DNA of 64,000 bases from NCBI RefSeq assembly GCF_030028105.1, contig NC_092374.1, positions 32,497,016-32,561,015 on the forward strand. The letters run 5' to 3'. This DNA comes from Mobula birostris. Taxonomy: Eukaryota. Position 1 is the first letter of the stretch. Every line of letters starts with the position of its first letter. Below are positions 1,995-60,039 of this stretch, piece by piece. Both the position numbers and the translations under genes were made by a program. Below the pieces are notes generated by a model, which searched no databases, was not told the origin of the DNA, and saw only the letters and a program-made list of their open reading frames with translations.

Positions 1995-3210
1995 CGGAGG
2001 CTGGTCAAGAAGGTTCAGTTGTTTGGCATTCAGGATGAGGTAGTAAATTGGATTAGACACAAACAAGAGAAAATCTGCAGGTGCTGGAAATCCAAGCAAC
2101 ACACACAAAATGCTGGAGGAACTCAACAGGCCAGACAGCATCTATGGAAAAGAGGACTGAATCTTTGCTGAAGGGTTTCGGCCCATTACATTGACGGTAC
2201 TCTTTTCCATAGATGCTGCCTGGCTTGCTGAGTTTCTCCAGCAGTTTGTGTGTGTAAATTGGATTAGACACCAGCTTTGTGGGAGAAGCCAGCAACTGGC
2301 AGTAGAGGGTTACCTCGCTAACTGGAGACCTGTAACTAGTGGTGTGCCTCATGGATCGGTGCTGAGTCCTTTGTTGTTTGACATCCATATCAGTGATATG
2401 GATGATAATGTGATTAACTGGATCAGCAAATTTACAGATGACACCTGGATTAAAGACAGTGACTTGCAGAGGGGCCTGCATTAGCTGGAAAACGGCTGAA
2501 AACTGGCAAATGGAAATTAATGGTAGGGCACTGAGGAATGTGGTAGAACGGAGGGATATGGGAATACAGGTCCATAATTTGTTGAAAGTGGTTTCATAGG
2601 TAGATAAGGTCACAAAGAAAGCTTTTGGCACATTAGTCTTCATAAATCAATTACTGAGTACAGGAAATGGGATGTTATGTTGAAGTTGTATTAGACATTG
2701 GTGAGGCCTAATTTGGAGTACTGTGTGCAGTTTTGATCCATACTGACAGAAAAGATGTGAATAAGGTTGAAAGACTATGGGGAAAATTTACAAGAATGTT
2801 GCTGGATCTGGAGGAGCTGAGATATGAGGAAAGATTGAATAGGTTAGGACTGTATTCTTTAGAATATAGAAGATTGAGAAGAGATTTGACAGAGGTACAC
2901 AAAATTATGAGGGGTACATGCAAGCACGATTTTTCCACTGAGGTTTGGTGAGACGATGTCCAGAGGTCATGGGTTAAGGGTGAAAGATGAGAAGCTTAAA
3001 GGGAACATGAGGGGAAACTTCTTGAAAGTATGGAATGAGCTGCCTGCATAGGTGGTGCATACAAGCTTGATTTCAACATTTGAGAGAAATTTGGATAAGT
3101 ACATGGATAGTAGGGGTAAGTTGATGGGAGTAGGCATTGAAATGGTTTCAAATGGACTCGATGGGCCAAAGGGCCCGTTTCTGTGCCGTACTATATGACT
3201 ATATGACTCT
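1995..3210 (+). mobile_element. CR1-type LINE 3' fragment, interrupted by a Penelope-like hairpin insertion
   Basis: WRPVTSGVPHGSVLSPLLF, SKFTDDT, YEERLNRLGLYSLEYRRLR; simple-repeat tail ACTATATG. Confidence 0.85.
2061..2253. mobile_element. Penelope-like (PLE) inverted pseudo-LTR hairpin mini-element with 18-bp TSD
   Basis: Flanked by the exact direct repeat GTAAATTGGATTAGACAC (2043-2060, 2254-2271). Internal inverted arms of about 55 bp; degenerate hammerhead core TTGCTGAAGGGTTTCGGCCC. Confidence 0.8.
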
Positions 3211-3294: not shown

Positions 3295-3525
3295 ACAAAT
3301 AAAAAAAATTGCAAGTACTGAAAATCTAGAACAAAAATAGAAAATTCTGAAAGAGCACAGCAGATCAGGCAGCAGCTGTGGAAAGAGAAATAAGCTTCAG
3401 GTGGGAGATAGGAGACCTATAATCAAACTCTGATGGAGCTTATTGCACTGATTCTTTCCCCATTGTGCTTCTCTCTCCACAGAGGCTACTTGCACAGCTG
3501 AGTATTTCAGACACTTTCTGATTTT
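3295..3525. mobile_element. Older PLE inverted hairpin remnant
   Basis: Antisense PLE tail (agcagatcaggcagcagctgtgga) followed by a sense tail (tccacagaggctacttgcacagctgagtatttc). Confidence 0.55.
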
Positions 3526-8276: not shown

Positions 8277-9664
8277 TATGAGGCGAATCATCCCGGGTTC
8301 GAATCCAGCCGACCCCTTGTACACTTTCCATCCATGCTCTTTGATTGTGGGAACATCTCAATAGATGAGTGTAGTTATCTTCTTATGTGCAAGAGCCTGA
8401 AAAAAGGGTAGTAACTGTATTTCAACCTGGTGATGCGAGCTCTGGGGCACTTATACCTTCTACCTGATGGCAGCAGCAAGAAGAGAGCATGGTCTGGGTG
8501 GTGAGGATATTTGATGCTGCTTTCCTATGACAGCATTTCATGTAGATATCCTCAATGGTCAGCTAAACATACTACCTAATAGTTTTAAGTAGTTCCTACT
8601 TCCATGTTTCACCGCCTGTGATTTTCATGAACCAAATTTGATTTGAATTAAGACTCCAGTAGCCCCATAAATAGGTGTTTCCAAATCTGGAACTTAATAC
8701 TACTTTGAATTCATTGTTAGAAGTGGGAGGCTCCATTTTTTGAGTCATAACAACACAAATGATTTAAAGATAACTCACGCAACCAGATTAGAGAATGTGC
8801 CTGTCCATGGTTCACCAAAGAGCAGCAGTTATGACAAAAGTAATCCATACCTCTCTAATCTGTCAGCTAAAAGAGTTTATTGGCATTTGTAGCAAAAAGC
8901 CTTCGTAATGTAGCTGTATTCATTGGAAAATAGGAGTCTCAAAATCAATCCATCAGCTTGCTCAGTGAATGGTTAATTTTTTTGCCAGAGGGAATGTAAA
9001 AGACCACCCCATTTCCCAAAGGGTTTCACCAGTACCATAAACTCACAACTTCATGACAAGTCCCAGCTTAATACCAGAGGTGAAGTGAAAGTTAATGAAT
9101 TTGAAATCAATACAACGTTTAACGGAGAATAATATCAAGGAGGTCCGGTAAAGATGAAGTCACTGGAAATCCAGGGAATTGGTTGGAGTTATAGATTGCT
9201 CAAAGGAAATTAAATCCATCGCGAGTGGATTGCTGTACTCCACAACTGCAGTTTGCAGCTCGCGGTTCTCTCGGATACAGAACACCAGCAGGTTGTTCAC
9301 ATAAAGAGATGCCTCGGCTCAGGAGGCTGTTGATGCTAGAATCTGAAATATTCAGATTCCGATGGAAGAATTCAGCGGGTCTGGCAGCATCTCTGCTTCC
9401 CTCCAGCAAACCCTCAGTATGTTGCTTCAAATGGCCCAAGGCAGCAGTAAGCTGGCCCATCTAGGTCTCAGGCTCTCTGTTAAGGAAGTGTATCTACGTC
9501 ACAGTGAAGGAAGAGGTCTTCCAGTGCTAGTGACCATGTTATTAGCAAGGGAGTGATTGTACTGAGCAGGGTGCAGGGTAGATTCATTGGGACATTTTGG
9601 CTCTGAGGACATAGGTTGGGTTGGAGGAAAGAAAGCTGATTGGGGGATTAAAAAATTATGAGGA

Positions 9665-12628: not shown

Positions 12629-13249
12629 CTGCAAAATATGCATTCTTATCTGAATAAAACTGTCTAATAATAAAATAATTATAAGAGGCTCTTTCAATAT
12701 ACCAAGGAAACTGTAGAGAGATATACACATTTGTCAGGAGATGATGTAATGGAAAAATGTCACGACATACTCATTGCAGCTTAGTAACCTTAAAGTACTT
12801 GATTCTATTTTACTGATTATGCTGCAAGCACATATGTATCATTGTCCATTAATGAACTCAGTGTGTACTTCTTCTGTCACTTTAACATTGCACCAAAACT
12901 AAGGTTATTATTTCAAGATAATATTAAGAACTTGATATAATTTTGTCAGTATAATAAACCTTAGCTTTGCAGATTCAGTTACAAGTTTGTGATATTTTAA
13001 AACTTATTGTCATTATAGATTAATGGGGTGTAATGACTTGCTCTACTTTACATAATACTTATAAATTTGAAATTTGCTTTGCATTTTCACATTTTGTACA
13101 TTAAAGAGCAGATTTCTAATGTAGTTCAGAAGGTGACAAACCCCTAGAAAGAACTGGATATGTGACATCAAAATAGTGGAATTAAAAGAAAAAAAAATCT
13201 GGAAGAACTCAGCTGGGCAGACAGCATCTGTGGAAGGAGGAACAGAGGT

Positions 13250-15292: not shown

Positions 15293-17944
15293 TGAGCAGT
15301 GTAACTTACAAGTACAAATAACAATTAGAAATGCAGTCTCATGTTAGTCTCATATACTGGTATGATTCGTTGACACTGTAAATATTACAAAGCTATAAAC
15401 ACATACTCTAAGTTAAATATAAATATGAAATATATTTGAGGTCTTTTTGGTACTGCTAATATTTACTTATAATTCTGGAATTTATAACATGAGTTATTAA
15501 ATTTGACTTACCAACTTTATCATAAGAACATAAGTACAATGTTCTTGAGTAGGATCAATCAGCCCCAGAAGATTCTTCCATTCAATAAAATCACAGTTAG
15601 TCCGATTTTGGCCAGAACAGGGATTTCCCATTCTCAACCCATAATCTTCTGTTTCCTTGTCACTGAAATATCTGCCAAAGCCTTATTTTTATTAGAGTCA
15701 ATGACTCTTCCTTCACAGCACTCTGGAATAGAGAACTGCAAAGGTTCACAACCCTGTGGGAGAAGAAATTCCTCCTCAGCTCCTTTGTTATGAAACTATG
15801 TTCCTAATTCCAGATGGCTTGTTGAGGGGAAATATTTTATCAGTAACTATCAGGTCATTCTCCTTCAGAGTCTTAGGTGTTTCAATAAGATCACATTATC
15901 ATGTCTTATGATTCTATAATTCAATGAGATCAGATCCAATTTGTCCATCCTCTCTTCATTTACCCCTTTAGCTCAAGAATCCTAGTGAATCTTTTTTGAA
16001 TGGCTGTGGTTGGCATCTGTCATAATCATCATCATAAGCCTGGGCAGAAGGTCTTCAAGATCCCCCTCTCGGCCTCACCAGTATAGTCCAAAGGAAAGCT
16101 TAAGAAGCAAAATGTTTGACACCAGCTTGGCTGCAGGAGCTGCCAGAAGGATGTTCCATGATATCCAGCAGCCTTACGGGATCCACTCTGGATTTGCTGT
16201 CTGGGTTCACTCCCATAGCCTTTGTCTCTCCTGAGGCTGCACACAAGGCAGTGGGGCTATTTGCCCATAGCTGGGGATCTGGTTCACAAGCACCAGGCCT
16301 GCCCACATGCCGGTGGGCCTGCGTGCTACGTGTGCAGGGGACAGACCTCCTCCCCGTCCTCTGTAGTTCAGACTGAGTCTGTCACCGTGTGTCCCCAGTG
16401 AGGAGGCACTACATGTGGCTTGCTGTTGGAGGGGCTATGTACTGGCAGGGAGAGATTTACACATTCAGCTCTCCTTTTCATGAGGCCACTAGCCAGTGGT
16501 GGAAGCTGAAAGTGAGAGTGACAAGCACTACCCACTTCACTACCACACCAGAGGCATCACGACAACCATTTTGACACCATTTTTTGAATTGCCTCTTCAA
16601 TTTAAGCATATCCTTCTTTAAATAAGAAGATTAAAACTCTGCTTTGTCCACACCTGCAATTAGAAAGAATCAGGCAACATTCAGGCATGTGCTAAGTGGT
16701 AACTTGTGTGAAATGACTACCTCCAACAAGAAAGAGTTTAACCACCTTCACTTGACATTTGTGAAGCTAATATTGCAGATGCTGAAAATCTGAAATAAGA
16801 ACAGAAAGTTTTGACAAGTCACACAACATCTGCTGAAGAAATTGAGTTGATGGTTCAGACACTGACCTTTCATTGGACCTTGTGTTTATATTAGTATTTA
16901 ACGAATTACTGTCATTTATTACCAATATTCACCAGAATGTCAACTGGACTTATGACATAAATGCTGTGGCAGAGCAATAGTTGGGTATCCTGCATCTCAT
17001 TCTGATGCCCATAGCCCTTCCACCATCTACAAGGCACAAGTCAAAAGTATGATGGAATCCTCTTTTTTGCCACGTAAATGAAGCTCCCACAACACTTAAG
17101 AACACCAGCAAGGGCAAGGAGAAGGTAGGCTGCTTGATTTTCACCCCCATCCACCACCCTAAACATTCAGTCCATTCACCAACATCAAGCCTTGCCTGGT
17201 GTGCCTATCTTCTCAGTAACACACTGCATTACTCATCTAGGCATCTCCCCAACAACTAACCTCTACCGGCAAGAAGAGCCAAGGCAGGTGGCACATGGGA
17301 GCACCATCACCAACAATGCCCCTATATCCAAGTTGCATACCTTCCCAACTTGGTTCCTTCATCGCTACTGGGTTGAAGCTCTGCATCTTCCTCCATAACA
17401 TCCTTGAGAAAATCCCTTCGCCAGAAGAAATGCGATTTCTCGTGTGGATGGGCAATAAATGCCAGCCCTGCCTCCGTAATCCAACTCCTAAAAAGTAAAT
17501 TATAAAAAGCAATAACAGTGCAGCTGACAGCAGGAAAATTTGGAGCCTTGATTTTAATTTCTAATTATATGACTCATTGACATTGTAAATAGCACAGAGA
17601 TATGAATAACTTATTCATAAATATTTAATGAATTTCGGGGCAGCAATTTTAACCCATCCTTTTTGACAAGGAGGAGATCAAGTTTGGGTTTAATGCACAT
17701 TTTACACTTGTCCAATTTTACTCTTCATTGAAATTAATGGAGAGCAATTGTGACAGGATGTAAAATGGATGCCTGGACTAAATTTTCTCTGATTCCCACT
17801 GAGTCTAGCTAAAATTGCAGCTTGTGAAAGCTTTTTAATGCCAGGGAAGATGTAACAGCAGAGCTTTAAGGGAAAATTTGAAGGCATGAGCAAAATGATT
17901 AAATGTTCTGTCATTTACAGCGAGGCAAAGGATGGAGGAGGTTC

Positions 17945-18310
17945 AAACACAAACAAGAGAAAATCTGCGGATGCTGGAAATCCAAGCAACGCACACAAAA
18001 TGCTGGAGGAACTCAGCAGGCCAGGCAGCACCTATGGAAAAGAGTCAACAGTCCATGTTTCGGGCTGAGACCCTTCAGCAGGGCTGGAGAAAAAAAAGAT
18101 TAGGAGTCAGAGTAAGAAGTGGGAGGAGGGGAGAAAGAAATACAAGGTAGTAGGTGATAGGTGAAACAGGGGGGTGAAGTAAAGAGCTGGGAAGTTGATT
18201 GATGAAAGAGATGCAGGGCTGGAGAAGGGGGAATCTGATAGGAGAGGACAGAAGGCCATGGAAGAAAGAAAAGGGGGAGGAGCACCAGAGGGAGGCGCTG
18301 GGCAGGTAAG
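17945..18310 (-). mobile_element. Penelope-like element 3' region/pLTR with a minimal hammerhead motif
   Basis: Pyrimidine-rich PLE 3' UTR. Minus strand CAGCC-CTGCTGA-AGGGTCTCAGCCC-GAAA-CATG-GACTG at 18049-18086. Confidence 0.75.
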
Positions 18311-18559
18311 AGATAGATAGGATGGAGGAGGTAGTATCTAGGAATGAACAATGGGAGATTAAAACAGGGAGAGACAGAAAAAAAGTAGGAAGTGAGAGGA
18401 ATGAAGGAAAATTAAGAAAGAGATGGAGACATGGAGAAAGAAGCCCAAGAAGGTGGAAAGGCAGCAAAGGTTTGCATTTGTATACCTCTTTTCTGATCTC
18501 AATGTCCGATTGTACATTAGAAACAGTTCAGTAATGTTTTAAAGACTGATTGGTGTTGT

Positions 18560-19120
18560 AGGGTGGTACAAGTAGCATTGTGGTTAGCGTGATCCTTTAG
18601 AGCACCAGTGACCTGGGTTCAATTCCCGCTGCTGTCGCATGGGGGTTGTACATTCTCCCCGTTACCACAAACAAGAGAAAATCTGCAGATGCTGGAAATC
18701 AAGAAACACACAACAAAAGACTGGAGCAACTCAGCTGGACAAGCAGCATCTATAGAAAAAAGTACACAGTCGACATTTTGGACTGAGACACTTCGGGCTG
18801 AGACTTGATGAAGGTTTCTCAGGTCAAAATGTTGACTGTTTGCTCTTTTCCATAGATGCTGCCTGGCCTGCTGAGTTGCCCCAGCATTGTGTGTGAATGA
18901 CTCCTTGCGACCCTGTGGGTTTCCTCCAGGTGCTCCTGTTTCCTCCCACATTCCGAAGTGGTATGGATGACGCTGTGAATGTGCTATCTTCATGCCAGAG
19001 GTGTGGCAACACTTGCAGACTGTCCCCAGCGTGACTATGTTGGTCGTTGATGCAAAACAATGCACTTCACTGTAGGTATGATTTGATGTTTCAATGTGCA
19101 TGTGCCAAATAAAACTAACG
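18560..19120 (+). mobile_element. tRNA-derived V-SINE interrupted by a PLE hairpin (about 18667-18897)
   Basis: A-box-like TAGCATTGTGG, B-box GGTTCAATTCC. The V-domain is split by an inverted PLE insert and resumes at GTGGGTTTCCTCCAGGTGCTCC. Confidence 0.8.
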
Positions 19121-20226
19121 TTAGCAATGCGAGAAAAATGTGCTAAATTATTGGGGAAACATTGCTGCTGTTAGTGGACATTTCTAGGTACTTGATCTTC
19201 CTTCTTTCCTTGAAATGAAACTGCTGAGCAGTGACCTGATGTTTATGACTGATATCAAGAAATCCTGACTCTCATAAGAACTGTTCAAGAGAGGAAATGT
19301 GCCTTTGGACAGACTTGAGATTTTTTTAAAATGTGATTTTTAAACCAAGCATTTTAAAATTCCCCGCAGAGGGGAATTTTACATTTGCTAGAAAAATAAC
19401 AAAGATAAGCTCAATGCATTTCTTCATCCGTTTCAGCAATGTTTGTGCAGGATTAGGTCCAATATTCACACATAGAAATTTGCATTGGATATCAATCAGG
19501 TTTTCCCTCACTTACTCAGAACATAGAACATAAAACAGCACAGTACAGGCCCTTTGGCCCATGATATTGTACTGAACTAATTAGCTAATGATGTCTAATT
19601 AAACTATTCCCTTCTTCCTGCACACAGTCCATATCCCTCCATTCTCTCCACATTCGAGGGCCTATCCGAGAGACTCTTAAACAACTCTATCAAATTTGCC
19701 TCCACCCTTGGCAGTGCATTCCAGACACCCACCAATCTCTGTGTAAAATAATTGCCCATATATCTCCTTTGAACTTACTCCTCTCACCTTAAACGTTTGT
19801 CCTCAGTGGACTGGGCCGTAATCAAGGACTCATCAGAGGACCTGAATGAATACACCACGGTTGTCACAGACTTTATAAAGCTGAGTGTGTCCCACAAAAT
19901 GATTCTGAGTCTTCCCCAACCAGATACTCTGGTTGAGACAAAAGACTGGAAACCTGCGGAGGGCTAGATCGGTGGCATTCCGGGCAGATGATTCAGGAAA
20001 GTACAAGAGGTCCAGACCTGACCTCCAGACAATTATAATGCATCTAAAGTGAATTTTTAGAATATTTAACACAATGGTTGATGTAGAAAAACTTTACCCA
20101 CATTAGACTGCATTAGGGTAGAAGGAATGCAATTGCAAATGTTAAGTTAATAGTCAGCTTCCAATGATTTAGTATTAGTGGATGGTCTAGCATTGAAAAT
20201 TAAAATAAATCTGTAGACCCAAATCA

Positions 20227-21260
20227 ACACACACAAAATACTGAAGGAACTCAGCAGGTCAGGCAGCATCAATGGAAATGAATAAAAAGGTGACATTTCA
20301 AGTCAAGTTTATTGTCATTTAACTACTTACACGTATATAATGTATACAGGAACAAGGCAACGTTTCTTTAAACCAGGCTGCAAACATATCACACGATAAC
20401 ATGAAGGTAAGGATAAAATCTGCAGATAAATCACACATAAATAACAAACTAAAGGGCATTAATATTAAATAGAACAGATTAACCAGGGACACATTAACTG
20501 TGATGCAGCGGGGCCGACTATTAACTAATGGCAGGCAGGAAGAAACTGCTTCTCATCCTGACTGTTTCTGTTTTTATGCATCGTAGTCTCCTGCCTGATG
20601 GTAGAAAGTCAAAGAGGATGCTGGATGGATGGGTGGGATCCTTGATAATACCAAGAGCCCTGCGAACACAGCGCTCCTGATAAATGTCCCCGCTGGATGG
20701 TAGGGAGACCCCTATGATCCTCCCGGCTGTTCTCACAGTCCTTTGTGGGGCTTCAGGTCCCACACTGGATTGCTCCCATTCCAGATGGAGATGCAACTTG
20801 TCAGGATGTTCTCAATGCTGCTCCTGTAAAACACAGTTAAGAGGGGGGGTGGGAGCCTTGCTTGCCTCAAACTTTTTAGGAAGTGGACGCGTTGCTGTGC
20901 CTTCTTGTTCAGGGAGGTGTTATTATGGGACCAGGTGAGGTCACCTGTGACGTGAAGGCCAAGACCTTTCATCAGGACTGGAACGGAAGGGGGAAGATGC
21001 CAGAATAAAAAGGTGGAAGGAGGGGAAGGAGGACAAGCTAGAAGGTGATAGGTTAAGGCAGGTGGAGGGGAAAGGTCAAGGGCTGGAGAAGAAAGAATCT
21101 GATAGGAGGGGAGAATGGACCATAGGAGAAAGGGAAGGAAGAGGGCACCCAGGGAGAAGTGATAGGTAGGTGAGAAGAGATGCAAGTTCAGAGTGGGAAA
21201 TAGAGGAAGGGAGGATTTTTTTTTACAGGAAGGAGATATCAGATTGAAGGCTACCCAAAT
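20227..21260 (-). mobile_element. Penelope-like 3' region split by a Rex1-type LINE (20300-20955)
   Basis: PLE UTR at 20956-21260 with CAGTCCTGATGAAAGGTCTTGGCCT; continuation GAAATGTC at 20292-20299. The insert encodes KKAQQRVHFLKSLR...FYRSSIENILT...FLPSGRRLR and has a (CTTGA)n tail. Confidence 0.8.
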
Positions 21261-21496
21261 GGATTATAAGGACCAACATGTCAGAACGGGGGCACAAGAG
21301 GAGGCCAGACCCTTATGTGTCTATTTGGCTCAATTAACTGGCCCTACTTCTGACCTGCTACTAATTCAATTACAGTTTCACTAAGGGTAAAGATTTGAAA
21401 AGGAGAAGGGAGTACATGTGCTAAAACCACATATGAGTGAAACTCAATGGGCCTGACTAAAAGCATGACATTTAGCGTGAGCAAATTTCCTCTTAC

Positions 21497-24700: not shown

Positions 24701-25904
24701 TCATGACTATTTTCAAATGTACGCTCCGAGGTTGGCCTGTGGATGGCTACTCTTTTAAATCATCTGTGCTACGCTCACTATATTCCACAAATATTTACAG
24801 TTACGTCCAAAAACATATGCTTGATTCAGAAGCAGATGGGAGGGTGAAGACCTGGTTCGAGCTCTTGGCAGACAGGTTGTAAATCTGTAACTGGTAATGG
24901 TTTTGTGTGATGGACTGCTGGTTTCAGGATAAAATCGCTGACCAGCCGAACTCCCTGAGCAAAGCTGCAGTATCACATGCTCCCCGCAGATTAGTCCATA
25001 ATGTCAATGGGAAAGAGAGTTGAGCTGATGTCCAATACCTTCTGACTGGCTACAGCTCATCTTGTTCTACAACCCATGGCAAAATCTAAATCCTCATCAA
25101 ATTCACCCAGGTAACCCAAAGGAGATCAATTGATAGCATCATACACAAAGTGCTGGAGGATCTGAGCAGGTCGGGCAGCATTCGTGGAAAAGGGTAGACA
25201 GTCGATGTTTCTGGCCAAGGCCCTTCTTTAGGCCTGACATTTCATTTCATTACTTTACTAAGTTCATTCTTCAAACAGCCTTGAAGAGGAAGTGCAAAAA
25301 TCTAACATTGACACATCCTTTTCAAATCTTCTGTGGTATTTATAAACCCTATTTTGCTTATTCTAATGTTGTATTAGAGTGTAGAATTGTTAGTTTTCTT
25401 GTATTTTCCTTGTGGTTTGACTTTCCTGTGCTTGCTTGTATTTTTACATAATCATCTACAGTATATACACATTCAGTGAATTTTCCAGCAATTGTGGTAC
25501 AGTTGCTTCTGTATTTTTCTAGAAGCTTCTTAGTTTTCAGCAGCAGGTGTCACACCACTTGAATCTAGCTACTTTGTCACTTGAATTTTGTTTCCTCTGA
25601 GTATGAGACGACCACGATTACTTTTTCCTTTGGTTCTTGTGCTTTATTCACTCAGCTCCTCTTTCTTGTTCATTTTCTGCTCTTTTAGCACTTAACAAAA
25701 TGGCTGTAAGCAACAAGTTTTATGCCTCATTCTTGACTTCCAAAGCACCTTTGGATCACAAAAGTATCAGGGTCCAAACTCTTTGGAAGTAAGAGAGGTG
25801 ATCTCTTTGAAATGTTTAAAATTCTCACAGGGCCTTGACAAGGTAGATTTAGGAATAATGTCTGAGCTGAACTGTATGTTTAGAAACAAAGGGTAACAAA
25901 TTCT

Positions 25905-26310: not shown

Positions 26311-26736
26311 AGCAAGTAGGACAGAGATGGGAGACCATCCCTTTTCCTCCAAAGATGCTGCCTGGCCCAATGAATTCCACCAACTCCAGCTTTCCACCGT
26401 CGGTGGTCTTCTACATCTCTAGCTTGCGGAAATGGGAGGAAATTTTCTTCACCCACCAAGTTCAGAGTCTTTGGAATTCCCTACTCATGAGGACTGCGGA
26501 AGCGTGGATGTTGAGTATATCTAAGAGATAAGTTTATAGTTTTGAATATTAAGGGAAGCAGGGGATATGGAGTTAGTGCAAGAACATGCTGCTGAGTTAA
26601 AGATCAACCAGCATACTATTGAACAGCAGTGCCAAATGATATGCTCTTGTTTCCCTTTCCTAGGTTATGTCTGTAAATGTACATTTTTATCTGCCATGAC
26701 AACATAATGCCTTGGTTAAGGTTTCTACTGCTATGC

Positions 26737-27484: not shown

Positions 27485-28714
27485 ATTTAATTTCCCATTT
27501 GTCAGTATGGTTGACCTAAGTCCATTCCAAATGATTATGGCTTCGTTAAAATGACGGAATCATAACAGTGTTATGTCACACGAGAAGCCCATTTGGGCTG
27601 TCAGGTCAATGTCAGCCCCATTCCGTCACTCTTTTGTTATAGACTTAGAAATCATTTTCTTCCAGGTGAATTAGATTGAATAAAATTGAATTTGCTTTCA
27701 GAGATTAGAAAGGCACCATGTATTTCTCAAACACTCATTCCCTTTGACATTTACCTTAACTGACACTTCCTCACAAATACTCTCTCCTCTTCAACGTTCT
27801 TAAACACTTGTCGTACATTCATGTCTTCAGCATAACATTCTCTTCCTTGTGATTATGTCTCTTCCTGGTCTCTCCTACTCTTCGTAGACAACACTCAATA
27901 GACATACGTTGTTTTTCTATTAACTCACCATTCCCCAACTCTAACACTTTGTATTTACCCTTCCGTTGGGTTACTGTTTGCAACCATTCTTTCATCCAAC
28001 CAGGTCCCACTTAGCAGACCTGTCTCACTCAAACCCGCACATCCCCTCTTTTAATTAGAATCCACCAGATTACCTCCTCCCCCCCAACCTACCGCACCAT
28101 GCGTTGCCTCCCCCCACCCCATCTCACTCTTCCACTAAATCGTTCACAATCATTTTGTCCGATTAAAGATGTATAAAACATAAGTTGCCTTCTACATAAG
28201 TGCAAGTAGCCATTATTGATATTTCATACCACAGCCTTTGGCCTTGCTGCAGCATTTTCCAAGCTGCACAAATCCTACCAGGGATTCTGGGATGTAGAAC
28301 AAAGGGGATAGAAAGCCACGTTGTTGAAATATATCTCCTGGCAGACTCCTGGCCTGAATAACAACAAGTTACCACAGAGCTGACAAAATGAGTTCATCAT
28401 TAATCATACTGGCACATTTATTTCCAACAACACTTGTCTATCAAATTCAAAGTAATAAATGCTCAGGTGTCACGGCTCCTCGACAACCCACTTTTATCTC
28501 CTCCAGCTTCCCTGCTGAACTTTTCTTTTGGCCAGATATTGTAAAAGCTCCTGAGAAATTCTTCCTTCAAAGATTTAATTGAATTTGTACTTAAAGCAGA
28601 AGTACAAGGTTGTCCTCAGGGCCGATAGGCATGTGCTTATTTTTCTAGCCCAACTGATCAAAATCCAACACAATCCAGCATTCTCGTTGCTTGTGCGTGG
28701 AACGAAAATATTCA

Positions 28715-29175
28715 GTCCATGATGAGGCCACCCTCAGGGTGGAGGAGCAATGCCTCATATTCCACCTGGGTAGCCTCCAACCTAATGGCATGAATATCGA
28801 TTTTTCCTTCTGGTAAAAAAAATTCCCTCCCCCTCTCCTCTTCTATTCCTCATTCTGGCCTCTTACCTCTTCCCATCTACCCATCACCTCCCCCTTCCCT
28901 TTTTCTTATGGTCCACTCTTCTGTCCTATCAGATCTCTTCCCCTCCAGCCCTTGACCTTTCCCACCCACCAGACTTCACCTGTCACCTTCCAGCTCTCCT
29001 CCTTCCCCTCCCCCCAACCTTTTGATTCTGCTGTCTTCCCCACACCTTTCCAGTCCTGAAGGAGGGTCTTGCCCCAAACCATCTACCATTTATTCATTTC
29101 CAGAGATGCTGCCTGACCTGCTGAGTTCCTCCAGTATTTTGCTCGTGTTCCTCTGGATTTCCAGCATCTCTCGTG
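28715..29175 (+). mobile_element. Penelope-like element 3' end (GIY-YIG C-terminus plus pLTR)
   Basis: HDEATLRVEEQCLIFHLGSLQPNGMNIDFS is typical of the PLE endonuclease end. Degenerate hammerhead CAGTCCTGAAGGAGGGTCTTGCCCC at about 29051. Confidence 0.8.
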
Positions 29176-29339: not shown

Positions 29340-32260
29340 GACATATGATGCAGAATATGAGGCTGAAATGTTATTCTGTGTGTGTGCTTTGTCTCAGTTT
29401 GCACACCTTCAGTTCTACCCAGTGGGTTACAGGATCACACTGACTTCAGAGTTGAGTACGCAAATCTATGCAATTAACTGCCTCTGAGGGAATGCTGTAA
29501 CTGCTGAGGTTGTTTTTCAGCTGAGGTTTTAAATCGAGGCTCTAAATGTGCTCTAATATAAATATAAAATGAATTTTGCTTTGTTTTTTTGAAAATTCCA
29601 TTTCCTTTTGACCGACAAAATGGCACGGTTACCAAAACTGCTTCCTCGGACTCCAGTGACGTGTATTTTGCCATTGTCTCTGTAGAGTTTGCACATTCAC
29701 CCTGTGAATGCAGGGATTTTCTCCAGTTGCAGCACCTTCCTCCCACATTCGGTGAGTTAATTGGCCAGTCTGCAGATGAATGGTAGAATCTGGGAGGGTC
29801 AGATTATTATCAAAGTATGTATGGACTACCTTGAGGTCCATTTCCTTGCAGGCATTCACAGGAACATAAAGAAATACAAGAGAATTTATGAAAAACCATT
29901 CGTGAACAAAGATCATCAAACAACCAATGTGCCAAAGAGGACAAGTAGTTCAAATAACTGAGAACATGGAGTGGAAAAGTCCTTGGAAGTGAATCTGTGG
30001 GTTTGGAATCAGTGGTGGGATGAGAGCTGACATACTCAATGAGTCAAATGGCCTTCACCTAAGTCAAAAAGACATGCACAGATATATACAGTAGCTAGAA
30101 ATTATGTACAGCCTAGCACGAATGTTAATTTTACCAAAAAGATCATCTAAATTTCTATTTTTTGTCATCTTCAGTATTATGACTGGGAATGCCAAGAAAT
30201 GGAGTACTGATTTGGGGTTGTGGCCAAAACCACTCTCTGGTGATAGCAATCCTGTCAATTTTCTCACTGGCAGAATAGATCACAGATCAGGTTCAATATC
30301 AATTAACTCATGATATTTGACTGATACTTTGATAATAGGCCAGCTCAAGAAGAAGACTTGCACCTCTTTTGACAATCTACATCATGGGCTAATTTTCTAG
30401 TAGTCCGGGGCATGAGAAATTCACTACTTAAAGGTTCCCGGCCAATTTTATGTCCCTCCTCCCTTTTTGTCCCATATATACAATTATTTGGCGAGTCCGA
30501 AACACCATTGAACAGCAAGCAAACTCAAGCCAAGTGAAGCTGCCCCGAGCTGCGAGGTTATTACAATAAAAGTGAACCCGGTAAATCACGAGTAACACTG
30601 AACGGTGTGGTGACCCTATGACAGCTCCTAGAGCTGCTACCGTACAGCTTCCTCAGCCTGCGCTCAATCTGACCTCTGGTGTTGGCTGTGTGGAGCTCGC
30701 ACATTCTCCCTCTTACCACCTGGGATTCCTCAGGTTTTCACCCTCATCCCATCATGGGTTGGTAGGTCAGTTACTCACACTACGTTGCCCCCAGTCTGCA
30801 CATATCTGGTAGAACCTGATGGTTGGGAGACCAGGAGTTGACGGAAATGTGGAGAGAATAAAAATGGGATCTGGTAGAATCAAAACAAAATGTACCTGAT
30901 GGTCAGGCAGATTTGTGGGAGGTAAAGGCCCTTTACCTGTGTTTATCTCTCTTTTACTCTGTGGTGCTATTGAATTGGGGATTGTCGGTCATGGTGCAGT
31001 GTTCCCCAGCCCAGAGACTTCCTTATAGGGTAGTTACTGGCGTATTACGCAACAAAGGGAGGGAAAGGCAGCAGAAAGCAAAAGGTCGTAGCTGATACTG
31101 GAATCGAGATCAAATTCCAGAACTCTGAGAGAACTCAACGGGTCAGGCAACAACTTGAATGAAAAACAGAAAACTCTGGGGAAAAAAAGCAGATCAGGCA
31201 GCAGCTGAAACAAAAAAAAATGCCCGAAGAATGCAGTCTGTCGGGTAGTACCTAGAACAACCAGGACACTGGAAGAACTCGGTTGGTTGGGCAGTGTCTT
31301 TGGAGTTATTTGTTCCTCTTCAACAAAAAAAAACAGAGAATGCTGGAAGTTTCTTTGCCCCCATAGATGCTGCCTGGCCCACTGAGTTCTTCCAGAGTTC
31401 TGGCTGGTTTTTGCAAAGGGAAAGGCTGGCGATGAAGAGAGGAAGCCGAGGCCTATGTAGTCTGTCAGTACCCATAGGAGTCACGCTGTCCCCTATTCTA
31501 GATGCTACCTGACCCACTGTGTTCCCTCAGCATTCTGTTTTCAGCACTGCTGTCTCTTTTGTTTTCTCAAAGACAAAGGAAATTTATTATCTAAGTATGC
31601 ATATGTTACCTTGAGATTCATTCTCTTTCAGGAAAATAAAAACACAATAGAATATATGAAAAACTATACATAAACAAAGACTGACAAGCAATCAATGTGC
31701 AAAAAAAAAACTGTGCAAATAAAAAAATCATAATGATACTGAGAACACAAGTTGACAGTGAGTTTGTAAGCTGTGGAATCATAAACACAAGATATTCTAC
31801 AGATGCTGGAAGCAGTCATGATGGAATAAGCCAAAAGATCTAACTCTGCCCCTTTGTCTTGTGGTCTAAATACATCAGGGATATGTCGAGTAGGTGTGAA
31901 AGAGATCATAAAATTCAGGACATTGAGTTCCCATTTCGATCATGGTGGTCCTGATTAGTGAGATGCCTCCTAGAGAGTGTTCGGGTAAATGAGTGGCTTA
32001 AAACTGCAATTTATTACCCCTCTTCCACCTCCTACCCTCCCTACCCACCCCCCCCCCGGGGCTTTCCATTGTCGCGGGTGCAAAGAAACACATTTTCCAA
32101 AAGTTAGTATGAATCAATGTATTAACTAATTGTATGTAACTCCAGTGTTCAACTGGAATCATTAATTACTTTACTCTCCAAAGTTACTGCCTGGTTTTCA
32201 ACACTTCTTGTTTGCATTCCATGTTTCCAGAATCCCCATTATTTTGCCTTGACTCACTAT

Positions 32261-33001
32261 TGTCACGATCCCGATCATTAATTCCCTATCTTTCTCCTAA
32301 TTTCCTTTGATTGTGCCACGGTTCCGACCATTAATTTCCCATTTGCTTCTAATTCTCTTTGATGACGGCACACCTGGTTTCCATCAAGACCTGCAGCATA
32401 AGAACTCCGGCGTTACAACCACTAGTCGCCAGATCGTTGGTTTTGCCTGTGTGGTAATTAACATTTCCAGACCACTTAGGACCGTGTATTCTAAATTTTG
32501 CTCCAGTTTCATCTATGAAACTCCATCTCTCTGTGTCAAGGCTCTGTGTCAAGATCCCTCCTGTTTCATAGTCATAGTCATAGTCATACTTTATTGATCT
32601 CGGGGGAAATTGGTTTTCGTTACAGTTGCACCATAAATAATAAAATAGTAATAAAACCATAAATAGTTAAGTAGTAGTATGTAAATTATGCCAGGAAATA
32701 AGTCCAGGACCAGCCTATTGGCTCAGGGTGTCTGACCCTCCAAGGGAGGAGTTGTAAAGTTTGATGGCCACAGGCAGGAATGACCTCCCATGATGCTCTG
32801 TGTTGCATCTCGGTTGAATGAGTCTCTGGCTGAATGTACTCCTGCACCCCACCAGTCCATTATGTAGTGGATGGGAGACATTGTCCAAGACAATGTCTGT
32901 TTGCCGTTTGCTGTTCAACGTTCATGTCTGTGTACGCATCCTAACTCAATCTCCGTGCCTGTGTCCTACACCTGGGTTTGCTTCATTTGCTCACTGCAAC
33001 A
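32261..33001 (+). mobile_element. Gypsy-type solo LTR with a nested Rex1 3' end
   Basis: TGTCACG...GCAACA termini; near-perfect 5-bp TSD ACTAT/ACAAT; internal CACACCTG and CATAAG motifs. Confidence 0.6.
32567..32896 (-). mobile_element. Young Rex1/Babar LINE 3' end
   Basis: Near-identical reverse complement of 51725-52040; (TATGAC)n tail; CTGTTT duplicated at 32561-32566 and 32897-32902. Confidence 0.9.
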
Positions 33002-33695
33002 ACAATAGGGGAAGAATTCTGCATCAGTCTAGGTGAAGATCTCAGCCCGAAGGTAGACAGCCCATCTCTCTCCACTGCTGTTCCCTGAGCTCCCCCAGCA
33101 GTTCACTCTCTGCTCCACCTTACAGCTTCAGCAATCTCTTTATTACAATCCAAAATAATCTCACTAGTCCAGGTGACAAGAGGATTCATTGGTTGGAGTC
33201 AGAAGCAAAATAAGGACTTTTGTTTTGAACTGCATATGCTGTAAATCTGAAATAAAAAGAGAAAATGCTGGAACCAGCAGCATCTGTGGAAAGCAAAACA
33301 GATTTAATGTTTAGTTTAAAGAATACAGATACTGGCTGATCTGCTGAGTGTTTCCAACATTTTTTTTTAACAATCAAGTAAATGGATTTTATAAATTTCT
33401 TTCCATCAGATAGGTCAAAATTTAAGAGGTAAGAGAGAGTTGCTGCTACAGGCAAGTTTTTTTTTAATTGCATCTGTACCTCACTGTACTCGTGTGCACA
33501 TGACAATAAACTCGACTTGATTTGGGAAGATAAGAACGCCAAGCTTCGGAATATGCGGCTGCTGCAGAACTCTGGGATGTAGAGGGCGGAATGCGGGAGG
33601 TAGTGAGAGGACGACCGGGAGGGGGCGAAATATCGGGAGGTCGGGAGAAGATAGCCGGGAGGAAGCAAAATACTGTACAGGCTACTAAGAGTTCA

Positions 33696-34050
33696 GGAGA
33701 CGGCAGAGGGAATACCGGGAGGTCGGGAGACGACAGGGGGCGGGATACCGGGAGGTCAGGAGACGGCAGAGGGCGGAATACCGGGAGGTCGGGAGACGAC
33801 AGGGGGCGGAATACCGGGAGGTCGGGAGACGGCAGGGGGCGGGATACCGGGAGGTCGGGAGACGGCAGAGGGCGGAATACCGGGAGGTCGGGAGACGACA
33901 GGGGGCGGAATACCGGGAGGTCGGGAGACGACAGGGGGCGGAATACCGGGAGGTCGGGAGACGGCAGAGGGCGGAATACTTGGAGGTCAAGAGACGGCAG
34001 AGGGCGGAATACTTGGAGGTCAGGAGACGGCAGAGGGCGGAATACGGGAG
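33696..34050 (+). repeat. 33-bp G-rich minisatellite, about 10.5 copies
   Basis: Unit GGGAGGTCGGGAGACG(G/A)CAG(A/G)GGGCGG(A/G)ATACC repeated in tandem. It appears as an 11-aa periodicity in the overlapping ORFs. Confidence 0.95.
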
Positions 34051-39242: not shown

Positions 39243-42200
39243 TCAGATCGCGTCCAAGATATCCTGCAGTGGGAGGGAGAACAGCCAGAGGTCGTGGTAC
39301 ATATTGGTACCAATGACGTAGGTAGGGAAAGGGAAGAGGTCCTGATAAAAGGCTACAGGGAGTTAGGAAGGAAGTTGAGAAGCAGGACTGCAAAGTTAGT
39401 AATCTCGAGATTACTGCCTGTGCCACGCGACAGTGAGTATAGGAATAGATTGAGGTGAAGGATAAATGCAAGGCAAGGGGCAGGGATTCAGATTTCTGGA
39501 TCATTGGGACCTCTTTTGGGGCAGGTGTGACCTGTACAAAAAGGACAGGTTGCACTTGAATCCGGCGGACCAATATCCTGGCGGGGTGGTTTGCTAAGGC
39601 TACTGGGGAGAGTTTAAACTAGAATTGTTGGGGGGTGGGAACTGAACTGAAGAGACTGGGGAAGAGGTAGTTGACTCACAAGTAGAGAAAGCTTGGAGAC
39701 AGTGTGTGAGGGAGGATAGGCAGGTGATAGAGAAGGGACGCACTCAGATGGACGGCTTGGGATGTGTCTATTTTAACGCAAGGAGTATTGTGAACAAAGC
39801 AGATGAGCTTAGAGCGTGGATCAGTACTTGGAACTATGATGTGCTGGCCATTACAGAGACTTGGATGGCTCAGGGACAGGAATGGTTACTTCAAGTGCCG
39901 GGTTTTAGATGTTTCAGAAAGGACAGGGAGGGAGGCAAAGAAGGTGGGGGCGTGGCACTGTTGATCAGAGATAGTGTCACGGCTGCAGAAAAGGTGGACG
40001 TCATGGAGGGATTGTCTACGGAGTCTCTGTGGGTGGAGGTTAGGAACAGGAAGGGGTCAATAACTCTACTGGGTGTTTTTTATAGGCCGCCCAATAGTAA
40101 CAGGAATATTGAGGAGCAGATGGGGAAACAGATCCCGGAAAGGTGTAATAATAACAGAGTTGTCGTGATGGGAGATTTTAATTTCCCAAATATCAATTGG
40201 CATTTCCCTAGAGCAAGGGGTTTAGATGGGGTGGAGTTTGTTAGGTGTGTTCAGGAAGGTTTCTTGACACAATATGTAGATAAGCCTACAAGAGGAGAGA
40301 CCATACTTGATTTGGTATTAGGAAATGAACCTGGTCAGGTGTCAGATCTCTCAGTGGGAGAGCATTTTGGAGATAGTGATCATAATTCTATCTCCTTTAC
40401 AATAGCATTGGAGAGAGACAGGAACAGACAAGTTAGAGAAGTGTTTAATTGGAGTAAGGGGAATTATGAGACTATCAGGCAGGAAATTGGAAGCTTCAAT
40501 TTGGAACGGATGTTCTCAGGGAGAAGTACGGAAGAAATGTGGCAAATTTTCAGGGGATATTTGTGTGGAGTTCTGCACTGGTACGTTCCAATGAAACAGG
40601 GAAATTATGGTAGGGTACAGGAACTGTGGTGTACAAAGGCTATGATAAATCTAGTCAAGGAGAAAAGAAAAGCTTATAAAAGGTTCAGAGAATTAGGTAA
40701 TGTTGGAGATCTAGAAGATTATAAGGCTAACAGGAAGGAGCTTAAGAAGGAAATTAGGAGAGCCAGAAGGGGCCATGAGAAGGCCTTGGCAGGCAGGATT
40801 AAGGAAAACCCCAAGGCATTCTACAAGTATGTGAAGAGCAAGAGGATAAGACGTGAAAGAATAGGACCTATCGTGTGATAGTGGGAAAGTGTGTATGGAA
40901 CCAGAGGAAATAGCAGAGGTACTTAATGAATACTTTACTTCAATGTTCACTATGGAAAAGGATCTTAGTGATTGTAGTGCTGACTTGCAGCAGACTGAAA
41001 AGTTTGAGCATATAGATCTTAAGAAAGAGGATGTGCTGGAGCTTTTGGAAAGCATCAAGTTGGATCAGTTGCCGGGACTGGATGAGATGTACCCCAGGCT
41101 ACTGTGGGAGGCTGAGCCTCTGGTGATGATCTTTGCATCATCAGTGGGGATGGGACAGGTTCCAGAAGATTGGAGGGTTGCGGATCTTGTTCCTTTATTC
41201 AAGAAAAGGAGTAGAGATAGCCCAGAAAATTATAAACCAGTGAGTCTTACTTCAATGGTAAGTTGATGGAGAAGATCCTGAGAGGCAGGATTTCTGAACA
41301 TTTAGAGAGGTATAATATGGTTAGGGATAGTCAGCATGGCTTTGTCAAGGGCAGGTCGTGCCTTACGAGTCTGATTGAATTTTTTGAGGATGTGACTAAA
41401 CACATTGATGAAGAAAGAGCTGAAGATATAGTGTATATGAATTTCAGCAAGGCATTTGACAAGGTACCCCATGCAAGGCTTATTGAGAAAGTAAGGAGGC
41501 ATGGGATCCAAGGGGAAAGAGAAGGCAAGGAGTGGTTGTAGACGGGTCATATTCTACATGGAGGTCGGTGACCAGTGGTGTGCCTCAGGTATCTGTTCTG
41601 GGACCCTTACTCTTTGTGATTTTTATAAATGACCTGGATGAGGAAGTGGAGGATGGTTTAGTAAGTTTGCTGATGACACAAAGGTTGGGGGTGTTGTGGA
41701 TAGTGTGGAGGGCTGTCAGAAATTACAGCGGGACATTGATAGGATGCAAAACTGGGCTGAGAAGTGGCAGATGGAGTTCAACCCAGATAAGTGTGAGGTT
41801 GTTCATTTTGGTAGGTCAAATATGATGGCAGAATATAGTATTAATGGTAAGACTCTTGGCAGTGTGAAGGATCAGAGGGATCTTGGGGTCCGAGTCCATA
41901 GGACGCTCAAAGCAGCTGCGCAGGTTGACTCTGTGGTTAAGAAGGCATATGGTGTATTGGCCTTCATTAATCGTGGAATCGAATTTAGAAGCCGAGAGGT
42001 AATGTTGCAGCTATATAGGACCGTGGTCAGACCCCACTTAGAGTACTGTGCTCAGTTCTGGTTGCCTCACTACAGGAAGGATGTGGAAGCCATAGAAAGG
42101 GTGCAGAGGAGATTTACAAGGACGTTGCCTGGATTGGGGAGCATTCCTTATGAAAACAGGTTGAGTGAACTCAGCCTTTTCTCCTTGGAGCGACAGAGAA

Positions 42201-42570
42201 TGAGAGGTGACCTGATAGAGGCGTATAAGATGATGCGAAGCATTGATCGTGTGGATAGTCAGAGGCTTTTTCCTAGGGCTGAAATGGTTGCCACAAGAGG
42301 GCACAGGTTTAAGGTGTTGGGGCGTAGGTACAGAGGTGATGTCAGGGGTAAGTTTTTACGCAGACAGTGGTGAGTGCGTGGAATGGGCTGCCGGCAACGG
42401 TGGTGGAGGCGGATACGATAGGATCTTTTAAGAGAATTTTGGATAGGTACATGGAGCTTAGAAAAAGAGGGCTATTGGGAAGTCTAGTAATTTCTAAGGT
42501 AGGGACATGTTCGGCACAACTTTGTGGGCCGAAGAGCCTGTATTGTGCTGTAAGTTTTCTATATTCTATG
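39243..42570 (+). mobile_element. CR1-type LINE, 5'-truncated in ORF1, near-complete ORF2
   Basis: ORF1 SGNH-esterase motif VVVHIGTND. ORF2 APE domain (YFNARSI, ITETW, YRPP, MGDFNFP, LDLVL, SDH) and RT (QHGF, FSKAFDKVPH, GVPQ, KFADDT); few frameshifts; TTCTAT tail. Confidence 0.95.
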
Positions 42571-44498: not shown

Positions 44499-45232
44499 AA
44501 TTGAATTTGATTTCTTACATCCTTCACATACATGAGGAGTAAAAATCTTTACGTTATGTCTCCGTCTATATGTGTATGTGTAATCATAGTAATTTATTAT
44601 ATATAGTCAATGTACATAGAAATACACTCAGATCAGCGTGAGTTAATCAGTTTGATGGCCTGGTGGAAGAAGCTGTGCCGGAGCCTGTTAGTCCTGGCTT
44701 TTATGCTGTTGTACCGTTTCCCAGATGGTAGCAGCTGGAATAAACTGTGGTTAGGGTGACTCGGGTCCCCAATGATCCTTCGGGCCCTTTTTCACACCTC
44801 TCTTTGTAAATATCCTGACTCATGGGAAGTTCACAACTACAAATGCGCTGGGCTGTCCGTACCACTCTCTGCAGAATCCTGCGACTAAGTGAGGTACAGT
44901 TCCCATACCAGCCAGTGATGCAGCCAGTCAGGATGCTCTCAATTGTGCCTCTGTAGAAAGTTCTTAGGATTTGGGGGCCCATACCAAACTTCCTCAACCG
45001 TCTGAGGTGAGAGAGGTGCTGTTGTGCTTTTTTCACCACACAGCTGGTGTGTACAGACCCCGTGAAGTCCTCAGTGATGTGAATGCCAAGGAACTTAAAG
45101 CTGCTTAGGCTCTCAACCCCAGATCCATTGATGTCAATAAGGGTTAGCCCATCTCCATTCTTCCTGTAATCCACAACCAGCTCCTTTGTTTTTGCGACAT
45201 TGAGGGAGAGGTTGTTTTCTTGACACCACTGT
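44499..45232 (-). mobile_element. Rex1/Babar-type LINE 3' fragment
   Basis: WCQENNLSLNVAKTKELVVDYRK...FKFLGIHI...KKAQQHL...FYRGTIESILT. Confidence 0.9.
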
Positions 45233-45939
45233 GGCCAAATGACTTTCATTCTGTTTTGTGAATCCTCTATAGATGTACACAAGACAACACTGGCTTTGTA
45301 TAATGAATATTTCTTAGTTTCAGGTGTGATTCTTTGAGGCAATGCACTTTTTCTGTTCAGCATGATTTTATGCAATGATTTCATGTGATTCTGGTTCATT
45401 TCCTAGTCAATATTACTTAATAGAACATATCTTGGCATTAATCATAGAAGAAAAGTATGGTAAAATACAATGCTAAATAAAACTTCACTTCTTCCAAATC
45501 TGCAGTTAAATGGAAGTCAATTGAATATCACTAGGGTGAAGTGAACATTGCAAGAAAAGCCATTCTGCACTGCAATAACTAAAATTCTGAGTATATTGGA
45601 CTGTACTAAAGAATGTCACAATCCGTGCACAGAATACACATGTGTCTAGGAACATTTAGGTTCTTATTACAAATATATAGGTGAGAGGTTTCTTCATCCT
45701 TGTGTATGAGTAAACATCCAATAGTTTTACAGAAGATTTGCAATGGCCAATAGTAGGTGTATGAATGATTTTACAACTTGGTGCTCCTGTGTCTAAATGT
45801 CTTAAGTATGCCACGAAATAAATACCGCAGCATTTATTTTTTTTTGTTCCTTGTGGAACACCGTCAGACACCATAAGACAAATCAGACTTGCTCACAGGA
45901 TAAGCTATTTCATAATGGCATGATTCCCATAATCAGTTG

Positions 45940-58445: not shown

Positions 58446-59820
58446 TTATCATTTGTGTGTGAAAGCATTTCTCCTCTAGTGTATATCTTTAGCCTGTTTC
58501 ATCATTACATTGAGTGGAAATGATGAGTCACTATTTACCTGTTAAAACTCTTCTAAGTTCAGAGTGAAATTATTAAATCTCAGCACTACAGAATGATAAC
58601 AGCATGGAAGAAGGCCATTCGGCCCACTGAGTCCATATCAGTTTCATTTAATCTCCCCTTGATCCTCCAGATTGTTTCCTTTCAGATGCTTATTGCACCC
58701 CTGAATCTGTCAATTATGGGAAGATCATAGGGAGATTCTCCATATTTCCTTTTACATTCCTCAACATCTGAGGATGAAACACATCTGGACCAGATTTATC
58801 CAATTTAAACACAGCTAGTAGATCTACTTCATCTATCAATAATCCAAAATGTTAATAATGCCTTTGTTTTAAGGCTCCAGTAGTATCCTTTTAGGTAAAG
58901 ACAACTATAAAGTATTTATTAAGTACCTCAAACATGCTCTTTGCCCCCAAGAGTAATTTATTTTTGTTTTGTCTCTTCAATTAAAGCCCTTTTCTTACAT
59001 GCATTTTCCAGTGCTCATGTATACATAATATTCTTGGATTGTCTTTGACAGACTCTTCTCATACTCTTTCTTTACCCCTCCTATTTGCTTTTTCACTTCC
59101 CTTCTGTACTTTCTGTAATCAACCTGATCTCACTTGTGTTAACAACGGGGCATCTCTTTGTTCTAGTCATTCAGGGAGCTCAGGCTTTAATTTCCCTACA
59201 GATCTATTCTTATCCTTTCGAAATTGGATCTCCTATAATGGATTATTTTTATCCTAGTATAGCTGAAAACTTTTTCCATTACTGTTCTGAAGTGTATATT
59301 TTTATGCTCACTTCCCCCCCCCCATTAGTCTTAAAGTTGAAACAGTAAATTAGACAGGTGTACTATTTCTCACATATTTTAATTAAGTACAATATTTGCC
59401 TTTGCAGTGAATGATAAATTGAGCTTCACTCCTGTGCAACTCCACCAAGGAAGTTTATCTCCAGAGTATAATTTGTGTATAGTTATAGCTTATTAAAATG
59501 ATTCTGGTAAACAGTTATTATTTTCCTTTGCAGATTATACATCAACATCCAAATTCAAATATAGCCATAAAATTCTTGCCAAATATTCCTCCTTCAAACA
59601 CATCACTTACACCATTTGCTCATTACAGCTTCAGTATATTCCATGTATTAATCACAATCTGTACTAAGAAAAATGTGCTGTGTATTTTTGTAAAAAAGAA
59701 GCAGAAGCTTTTGATTCCTTTGCTTAAATGGTATTTGATAGTAAAGTTGGTGTAGACTTTTGTCTTGCTCTAATAAAATTTTGTGTCAAATTGTTAAATT
59801 CTGTTTGAAGGGTTTTAATC

Positions 59821-60039
59821 ACAAACAAGAGAAAATCTGCAGTTGCTAGAAATTGAAGCAACACACACAAAATGCTGGAGGAGCTCAGCAGGCCAGGCAG
59901 CATCTATGGAAAAAAAGTACAGTCAACATTTTGGACCCTCCAGTCCTACCGAAGGATCTGGGCCCAAAACATCAACTGTACTCTTTTCCATAGATACTGC
60001 CTGGCCTGCTGAGTTCCTCCAGCATTTTGTGTGTTTTGC
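59821..60039. mobile_element. PLE inverted pseudo-LTR hairpin mini-element with 16-bp TSD
   Basis: Exact direct repeat TTGAAGGGTTTTAATC at 59805-59820 and 60040-60055. Inverted arms of about 80 bp; degenerate hammerhead CAGTCCTACCGAAGGATCTGGGCCCAAAACATCAACTG at the turn. Confidence 0.85.

Follow-up and report, generated by a model that had tools for sequence, protein, structure and literature searches.

A 64-kb stretch of A+T-rich animal DNA, full of repeats of shark- or ray-like appearance and with LINE remnants (hereafter the window), carries a mutated minimal type I hammerhead motif at 18049-18086 on the minus strand. Weighing all the evidence, we consider it probable that this motif belongs to the end repeat of a likely Penelope-like element (PLE), that an intact source motif would cut slowly at its GUC triplet as a dimer helped by a protein, and that the copies in the window are inert. 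What the DNA itself shows is the motif with its layout, family-wide conservation, and decay, as well as the insertion anatomy of tail, inverted arms, and target duplications. The hammerhead core also appears to be polymorphic at the family level, with A6 or C6, which the original prediction had missed.

The 38-nt motif at 18049-18086(-) is decayed, with four of five pairs left in helix I and four of four in helix II. It is composed of the helix I 5′ strand (18082-18086, with a private change at 18083), the core box from C3 to A9 (18075-18081), which reads CUGCUGA with C6 at 18078, a bulged A and a helix II of 4 bp with a 4-nt loop (18062-18074), the GAAA box with the helix III remnant (18058-18055) and position 17 at 18054 (18054-18061), and the helix I 3′ strand (18049-18053), all on the minus strand. 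From the sequence, the cut site is predicted between 18054 and 18053. Four defects are seen, namely A6C, G at position 17, ACAU replacing the ACGU palindrome, and one broken helix I pair. A G at position 17 breaks the NUH rule for hammerhead cut sites. The family motif has four CpG sites (helix II, G12, helix III, and C17), through which ordinary methylation decay destroys it. Folding prediction on its 154-nt context gives a lowest-energy fold without the hammerhead motif. The host repeat (17947-18336(-)) is read as a 5′-truncated PLE end containing a pyrimidine-rich tract, the hammerhead, and a 3′ segment. Contig loose ends and arm mapping define a tail of ~44 nt (17948-17991(-)), bounded by the family's two common 3′ ends at 17948 and 17992.

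All seven copies named in the original prediction are present with only small coordinate shifts. Aside from the 18049 copy, they are located at 20957-20980(-), ending after helix II; 25199-25236(-), with G5A; 29051-29088(+); 59941-59978(+), with C6; 62426-62463(+); and about 18802-18838(+), with one additional base in helix II. Three further arms hold the motif or part of it, at 2160-2197(+), 18767-18790(-), and 59920-59935(-). Ungapped matches to the 18049 copy of at least 24 of 38 positions number seven in the window, self included, versus 0.03 per shuffled window (30 shuffles, bases permuted inside 200-nt blocks). A profile search of the window with an E limit of 0.1 yielded 25 segments of the family, 23 of which total 3309 bases, or 5% of the window. 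The copies differ in extent. The 3′-truncated copy at 20957-21300(-) has an intact CUGAUGA box at 20957-20980 and no GAAA. One short copy (25128-25240(-)) begins at helix I and includes the 25199-25236 motif, and another (20211-20307(-)) begins inside the motif, from about G12. The longer copy at 28713-29169(+) contains an ORF end (28718-28816), a pyrimidine tract, and the 29051-29088 motif; the longest one at 61990-62519(+) contains a broken ORF end (about 61996-62203), the tract, and the 62426-62463 motif. Older, more diverged relatives of the 3′ segment are found at 16774-16882(-), 33017-33106(+), 33230-33363, 3308-3384(-), 13194-13235(-), 26336-26425(+), 31361-31540(+), and 9328-9395(-), two of which retain a trace of the motif with a different helix II sequence.

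We then derived a consensus from ten window arms. At four sites the arms show TG as well as CA, the two products of CpG decay, and CpG was restored there; one further site was kept at its plain majority (TG in six of nine, no CG). The resulting CpG-corrected column majority equals the 38-mer proposed earlier letter for letter, and contains the claimed CUGANGA and GAAA boxes along with helix I, helix II, and a helix III that is palindromic. Its layout, with a bulge between A9 and G10.1, the G10.1-C11.1 pair, and palindromic 15.2-16.2, agrees with that of the minimal hammerheads described in 2014 (PMC4209133), in line with the type I minimal reading. The consensus carries C3-U4-G5-A6-N7-G8-A9, G12-A13-A14, A15.1-U16.1, and H17, but no single window copy does. 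As had been predicted, every copy is altered: none of the ten arms, three of which are partial, fits the full core pattern. One of these changes, A6C, is probably not private decay, being common to three of the eight informative window copies and to a large share of the public contigs described below. In the six full-length copies, CpG bases are altered in 21 of 48 cells and non-CpG bases in 29 of 175. The ACGU palindrome of helix III is kept in none of nine window arms (six CA, three TG).

The predicted pairing probability of all nine helix I and II pairs in the consensus is 0.88-1.0, and its helix II is capped, with the G10.1-C11.1 pair and a bulged base after A9. In nine aligned copies, 73.8% of cells pair, compared with 26-43% when the partners are slid by 1-3 columns. 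The covariation score of these nine related, decayed copies is 0.228 (4 of 500 shuffles as high); two-sided change occurs in just three pairs (125 of 500), and the G-C to A-U changes are explicable as two decay events, which weakens the covariation count.

Family-wide conservation was inspected in public contigs. Those of 4 of 24 listed runs were mapped at 80% likeness on 17930-18345 with the C6-bearing 18049 copy as the reference, yielding 151,744 (X1), 178,102 (X5), 117,812 (X10), and 11,129 (X19) contigs. Run X1 is possibly from the same sample as the window, and X19 is RNA by guess only and hence says nothing on expression. The shares given here are summed depth on one reference rather than copy counts, with some differences uncounted and 40 of 62 variant rows listed. 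At position 17, C accounts for 59-68% of depth and U, which arises by CpG decay, for 23-38%; helix I is restored at 18083 in 92-96%, and G12A occurs in 25-34%. Among the 40 of 62 variant rows listed, none falls at C3, U4, G5, G8, A9, A13, A14, A15.1, or U16.1. In three of the four runs (1006, 1116, and 760 contigs, 58% agreement), the commonest loose-end consensus at 18045 has an intact helix II, the GAAA box, the ACGU palindrome, the GUC triplet, and the 3′ strand of helix I. Hence, the public contigs as well as the window consensus keep the CUGANGA and GAAA boxes, on whose presence in the family the original prediction had staked itself. Both 3′ ends of the family show up among the loose ends, flanked by AT-rich sequence of low agreement; 17992 is seen in all four runs, and 17948 is listed for X5. 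Summed depth relative to single-copy depth, which does not equal copy number, is ~10^6 over the 3′ segment and 3-6 × 10^4 over the motif. This drop was rejected as evidence of truncation, as the depth climbs again upstream. No 5′-truncation peak at the cut site is seen among the 24 loose ends listed (2232 more are unlisted).

The core position 6 behaves differently from the other changes of the reference copy. A6 at 18078 is found in 46%, 46%, 53%, and 68% of depth in X1, X5, X10, and X19, respectively, and C6 likely makes up 35-50% of the mapped family depth. In the three large runs, five other changes (17969, 17991, 18031, 18046, and 18083) revert in 88-97% of depth, which indicates that reference bias is small, and 18054 reverts in 96-97%, compared with only 46-53% at 18078. 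No G>C change occurs in the variant table of these runs, and its two unlisted G>A rows most likely reflect the CpG partners 18057 and 18067. The three C6 copies in the window share a single 3′ sequence type (three of five there, none of three in the other type). These observations argue against C6 being ordinary private decay whose excess is an artefact of short contigs mapped on a C6-bearing reference. We regard such an artefact as unlikely while giving it some weight: the reference is itself a C6 copy, the contigs are short and had to reach 80% likeness, depth is summed instead of copies counted, 22 variant rows are unlisted, and the sharing of C6 within the window is not significant on its own (p 0.11-0.5 over all sites). 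Our preferred explanation is that A6C in the 18049 copy was probably inherited from the source element, and that a large subfamily has likely spread with the C6 core.

C6 may also matter for activity. The folding model predicts that the A6 monomer is most stable with G5-G8 zipped onto 15.2-17, which places the core against the cut site and leaves an open-fold probability of 0.02; a helix III of 4 bp formed between molecules contributes only -1.7 kcal/mol. C6 removes the locking pairing and raises the predicted open fold to 0.39. The literature searched (Repbase, Dfam, and most subscription papers lying outside its scope) holds no C6 core in a PLE, and within the same scope a natural C6 hammerhead was found only for phage Bcep176. 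Searches of it for the motif letters and for CUGCUGA with hammerhead returned no description of the repeat family in the window, Repbase and Dfam again being outside the scope. The Bcep176 hammerhead has the A6C change and a rate under 0.1 per minute (Perreault 2011, PMC3088659). The A6C hammerhead prefers Mn2+, and an engineered A6C ribozyme cuts over 10,000 times as fast with Mn2+ as with Mg2+ at 300 μM (Naghdi 2020, PMC7151607). The family in the window has C at core position 6 in common with Bcep176, but the latter is a single phage ribozyme that works as a monomer, whereas the former is a minimal motif in a high-copy animal retroelement. By analogy, we tentatively propose that a huge PLE subfamily amplified with a C6 core might carry a tuned rather than a dead ribozyme, slower in Mg2+ and favoring Mn2+.

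Whether the motif cuts at all has an alternative answer. It could be a hammerhead by ancestry that performs no cutting now and is kept as a structure, for protein binding or as a reverse transcription stop, or as an overlapping signal such as a splice acceptor or ORF start. A6 is missing in about half of the mapped depth, ten window arms cross the cut site, and the pyrimidine tract ends in CAG at helix I in three of four long copies. Furthermore, in the Poseidon element of Anolis carolinensis (PAc), hammerhead mutants are reported to leave in vitro insertion unchanged, and no RNA-seq reads start or end at the cut site (PMC11167929). Nevertheless, we judge this explanation improbable, as the other core positions are conserved across more than 100,000 contigs in each large run, protein-assisted cleavage depends on C3 and G8 (PMC11167929), and the natural C6 hammerhead still cuts, best in Mn2+ (PMC7151607). 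What the arms do imply for the preferred reading of a slowly cutting source is that their templates were uncut or religated, since all ten read through the predicted cut site. The probable large C6 subfamily suggests that fast cleavage is unnecessary for copying. Hammerhead cleavage is dispensable in vitro (PMC11167929), and the role of PLE hammerheads is described as still open (PMC8557442).

The repeat that hosts the motif is, judging from its sequence, a very abundant and likely Penelope-like retroelement. The PLE host had been claimed at the outset; insertion anatomy and a by-eye ORF-end match speak for it, but database searches named no PLE protein. Three copies are head-to-head palindromes. 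The first (2043-2271) has a long arm at 2058-2156(-), a short arm at about 2165-2254(+), and the C6 motif at 2160-2197, and is flanked by an exact 18-bp target duplication (2043-2060 and 2254-2271). The second (59805-60055) has the C6 motif at 59941-59978(+) and a partial motif at 59920-59935(-) between exact 16-bp duplications (59805-59820 and 60040-60055). The third (18666-18897) has a motif at about 18802-18838(+) and a partial one at 18767-18790(-). No clean target duplication was found for this third palindrome, and no convincing one for six solo copies. The third palindrome interrupts what we take to be a tRNA-derived-SINE-like repeat at 18570-18960; ARAGORN found no tRNA. In each of the three palindromes, the antisense arm is the long one and the sense arm falls short of it by about 40-45 nt, corresponding to the tail, and each turns inside or beside the motif. 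PLEs are reported to have an inverted 5′-truncated copy and a 30-40 bp tail at one end (PMC8557442, PMC3846280); the inverted arms are alike here, and the tail of about 40-45 nt slightly exceeds the published length.

Two copies continue upstream via the pyrimidine tract into an ORF end, and a third reaches a short ORF remnant. The ORF ends at 28718-28813 and 61996-62200 follow the pattern EHL...PVA.H...EEQCLI...L.P.GMN, which we take to resemble Neptune or Naiad endonucleases more than that of Poseidon. Its EEQCLI...L.P.GMN part aligns by eye with EDQCII...LYPDGLN at the end of the GIY-YIG domain of Naiad-2_Dst (PMC8557442 supplement), and Naiad endonucleases are described as indistinguishable from Neptune ones (PMC8557442). 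Word-index, Pfam, and PDB searches found no PLE protein for the ORF remnant. HMMER over 1.84 billion proteins returned two matches, both rejected as tandem-repeat junk, and the ESM Atlas gave a sub-threshold GIY-YIG lead of 0.79, with all leads below 0.9. The antisense reading frame that spans the motif, used as a query, had no match, and the motif pattern had no match in metagenome (two), viral (one), and prokaryote (one) contig sets. The window contains no telomerase-like reverse transcriptase domain or full-length element of this family, its copies being too short; the ORF part with the Neptune-clade CX2-5CxxC RT-EN linker is likewise absent, and with truncated ends only, no direct pLTRs in partial tandem around an ORF are present.

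At the other end of the element, most copies have an ATG at 18031, and the first long open frame starts about 22 nt past the cut site. This frame in the end repeat is likely the start of the element ORF; in PAc, the ORF starts at stem II instead (PMC11167929). A second pyrimidine tract with YAG immediately precedes an ATG whose frame stays open for about 28 codons, up to the tail end (17947-18035(-), with equivalents at 2058-2150(-) and 59818-59900(-)), a context kept in older, diverged copies. The upstream tracts at 18082-18125(-), 20976-21020(-), and 29010-29056(+) end in CAG exactly at the helix I 5′ strand, like a 3′ splice site, in three of the four long copies, and the 18049 copy also has branch-point-like CTGAC/CTAAT. 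In Drosophila virilis Penelope, an intron end is reported at helix I (PMC4209133). No splice joint was seen in the mapped contigs.

Of the 11 arms measured, eight span 69-129 nt and terminate within the motif or beside it, and none is between 130 and 385 nt; an exponential test on arm lengths gives p 0.0004, which is indicative only as the limits were set after seeing the data. The palindrome turns and the 69-129 nt arms suggest that reverse transcription often stops at the motif. In the contigs, head-to-head joints recur at 18045/18082 and 18030/18077 in several runs, the former being the best supported with 10, 13, and 3 contigs in X1, X5, and X10. The 18045/18082 joint fits a join at helix I, which may stem from run-off where the RNA was cut, from nothing more than microhomology, or from a subsequent deletion. 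Opposite-strand joints between 3′ ends (17948/17992, 17950/17992, and 17951/17984) are present in three runs and are perhaps tail-to-tail neighbors, either tandem palindromes or insertions into the family's own end.

Clustered arm lengths and recurrent joints would also be expected if the short copies formed a non-autonomous family of their own, retrozyme-like or a MITE-like palindrome, rather than being truncated ends of an autonomous PLE. We find this very doubtful. The three palindromes have three different junctions, three copies extend into the ORF end, and the arms differ by the tail with no equal-arm terminal inverted repeat. Non-LTR retrozymes share the type I hammerhead and PLE derivation with the family (Cervera and de la Pena 2020, PMC7229834; Li et al. 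2026, 10.64898/2026.07.22.740005), and are reported in one chondrichthyan genome (10.64898/2026.07.22.740005). They are head-to-tail tandem repeats (PMC7229834), whereas the window copies are solo or head to head. Identity with a tandem retrozyme was rejected, as none of the seven tandem arrays in the window is the hammerhead unit.

A chance hairpin in an ordinary repeat is a negligible prospect: although the motif is short, its bare core pattern also matches three unrelated A-rich places in the window, and an Rfam search of the window at E up to 5 gave 11 matches without a hammerhead family, in the consensus all 11 bases of the core fall in register with the two helices, the bulge, the pair G10.1-C11.1, and the palindrome, and the motif sits where PLEs carry hammerheads.

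The reading of a PLE end with a slowly cutting source motif can be put together as follows, by analogy with PAc (Frangieh et al. 2024, PMC11167929). The element protein would nick both target strands 16-18 bp apart, and reverse transcription would start at two internal sites about 44 nt apart. As in PAc (PMC11167929), the hammerhead would lie upstream of two reverse transcription start sites that define the tail, and both target strands would be extended with uncut RNA as template. Copying would run across the hammerhead on this uncut RNA, and pairs of short cDNAs, each primed from a different target strand, would often be linked head to head at or near it. The source motif would likely cut at GUC slowly, as a dimer via the ACGU helix with the element protein helping, as in the Schistosoma minimal hammerheads and PAc. 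After insertion, decay of the four CpG sites (helix II, G12, helix III, and C17) would destroy the motif. Compared with the minimal hammerheads that metazoan PLEs carry in their pLTRs (described by Cervera and De la Pena in 2014, PMC4209133), the type I layout and the 5-bp helix I are in common, and so is the occurrence mostly as single motifs in truncated copies, with some opposite-strand pairs and thousands per genome. Helix II is of 4 bp here versus 7-8 bp in the Schistosoma families, and the core variant is C6 here versus U3-A8 there (PMC4209133). Shark names have no match in two supplementary files of that paper.

The window has other features beside this family. The palindromes have sub-threshold Rfam microRNA matches at 18736-18869, 2103-2251, and 59893-60004 (MIR9408, MIR8562, and mir-2131). 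Broken LINE ORFs unrelated to the hammerhead repeat are located at 39646-42373(+), 49832-51902(+), 44701-45402(-), and 55634-57124(-), with Pfam endonuclease, RVT_1, or ALKBH8_N matches. A purine-rich 33-bp tandem repeat at 33689-34050 has 11 copies with 90% matches and is open in several frames. The opposite-orientation 313-bp pair at 32578-32890 and 51727-52038 is 93.6% identical and the youngest-looking dispersed pair in the window.

The finding adds one host to the 2014 rule that PLE end repeats bear minimal hammerheads and that most genomic copies are dead. If transcribed, the palindromes would fold as long hairpins that could be mistaken for microRNA genes. If the reading of a tuned C6 core is true, the clustering of head-to-head junctions at the motif may trace reverse transcription stops or RNA cuts. 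Likewise, a single genome with sister subfamilies of the A6 and C6 types would offer a natural test of the role of cleavage in transposition, in which two co-existing high-copy subfamilies one core base apart could be compared in cleavage rate, copy number, age, and junction pattern.
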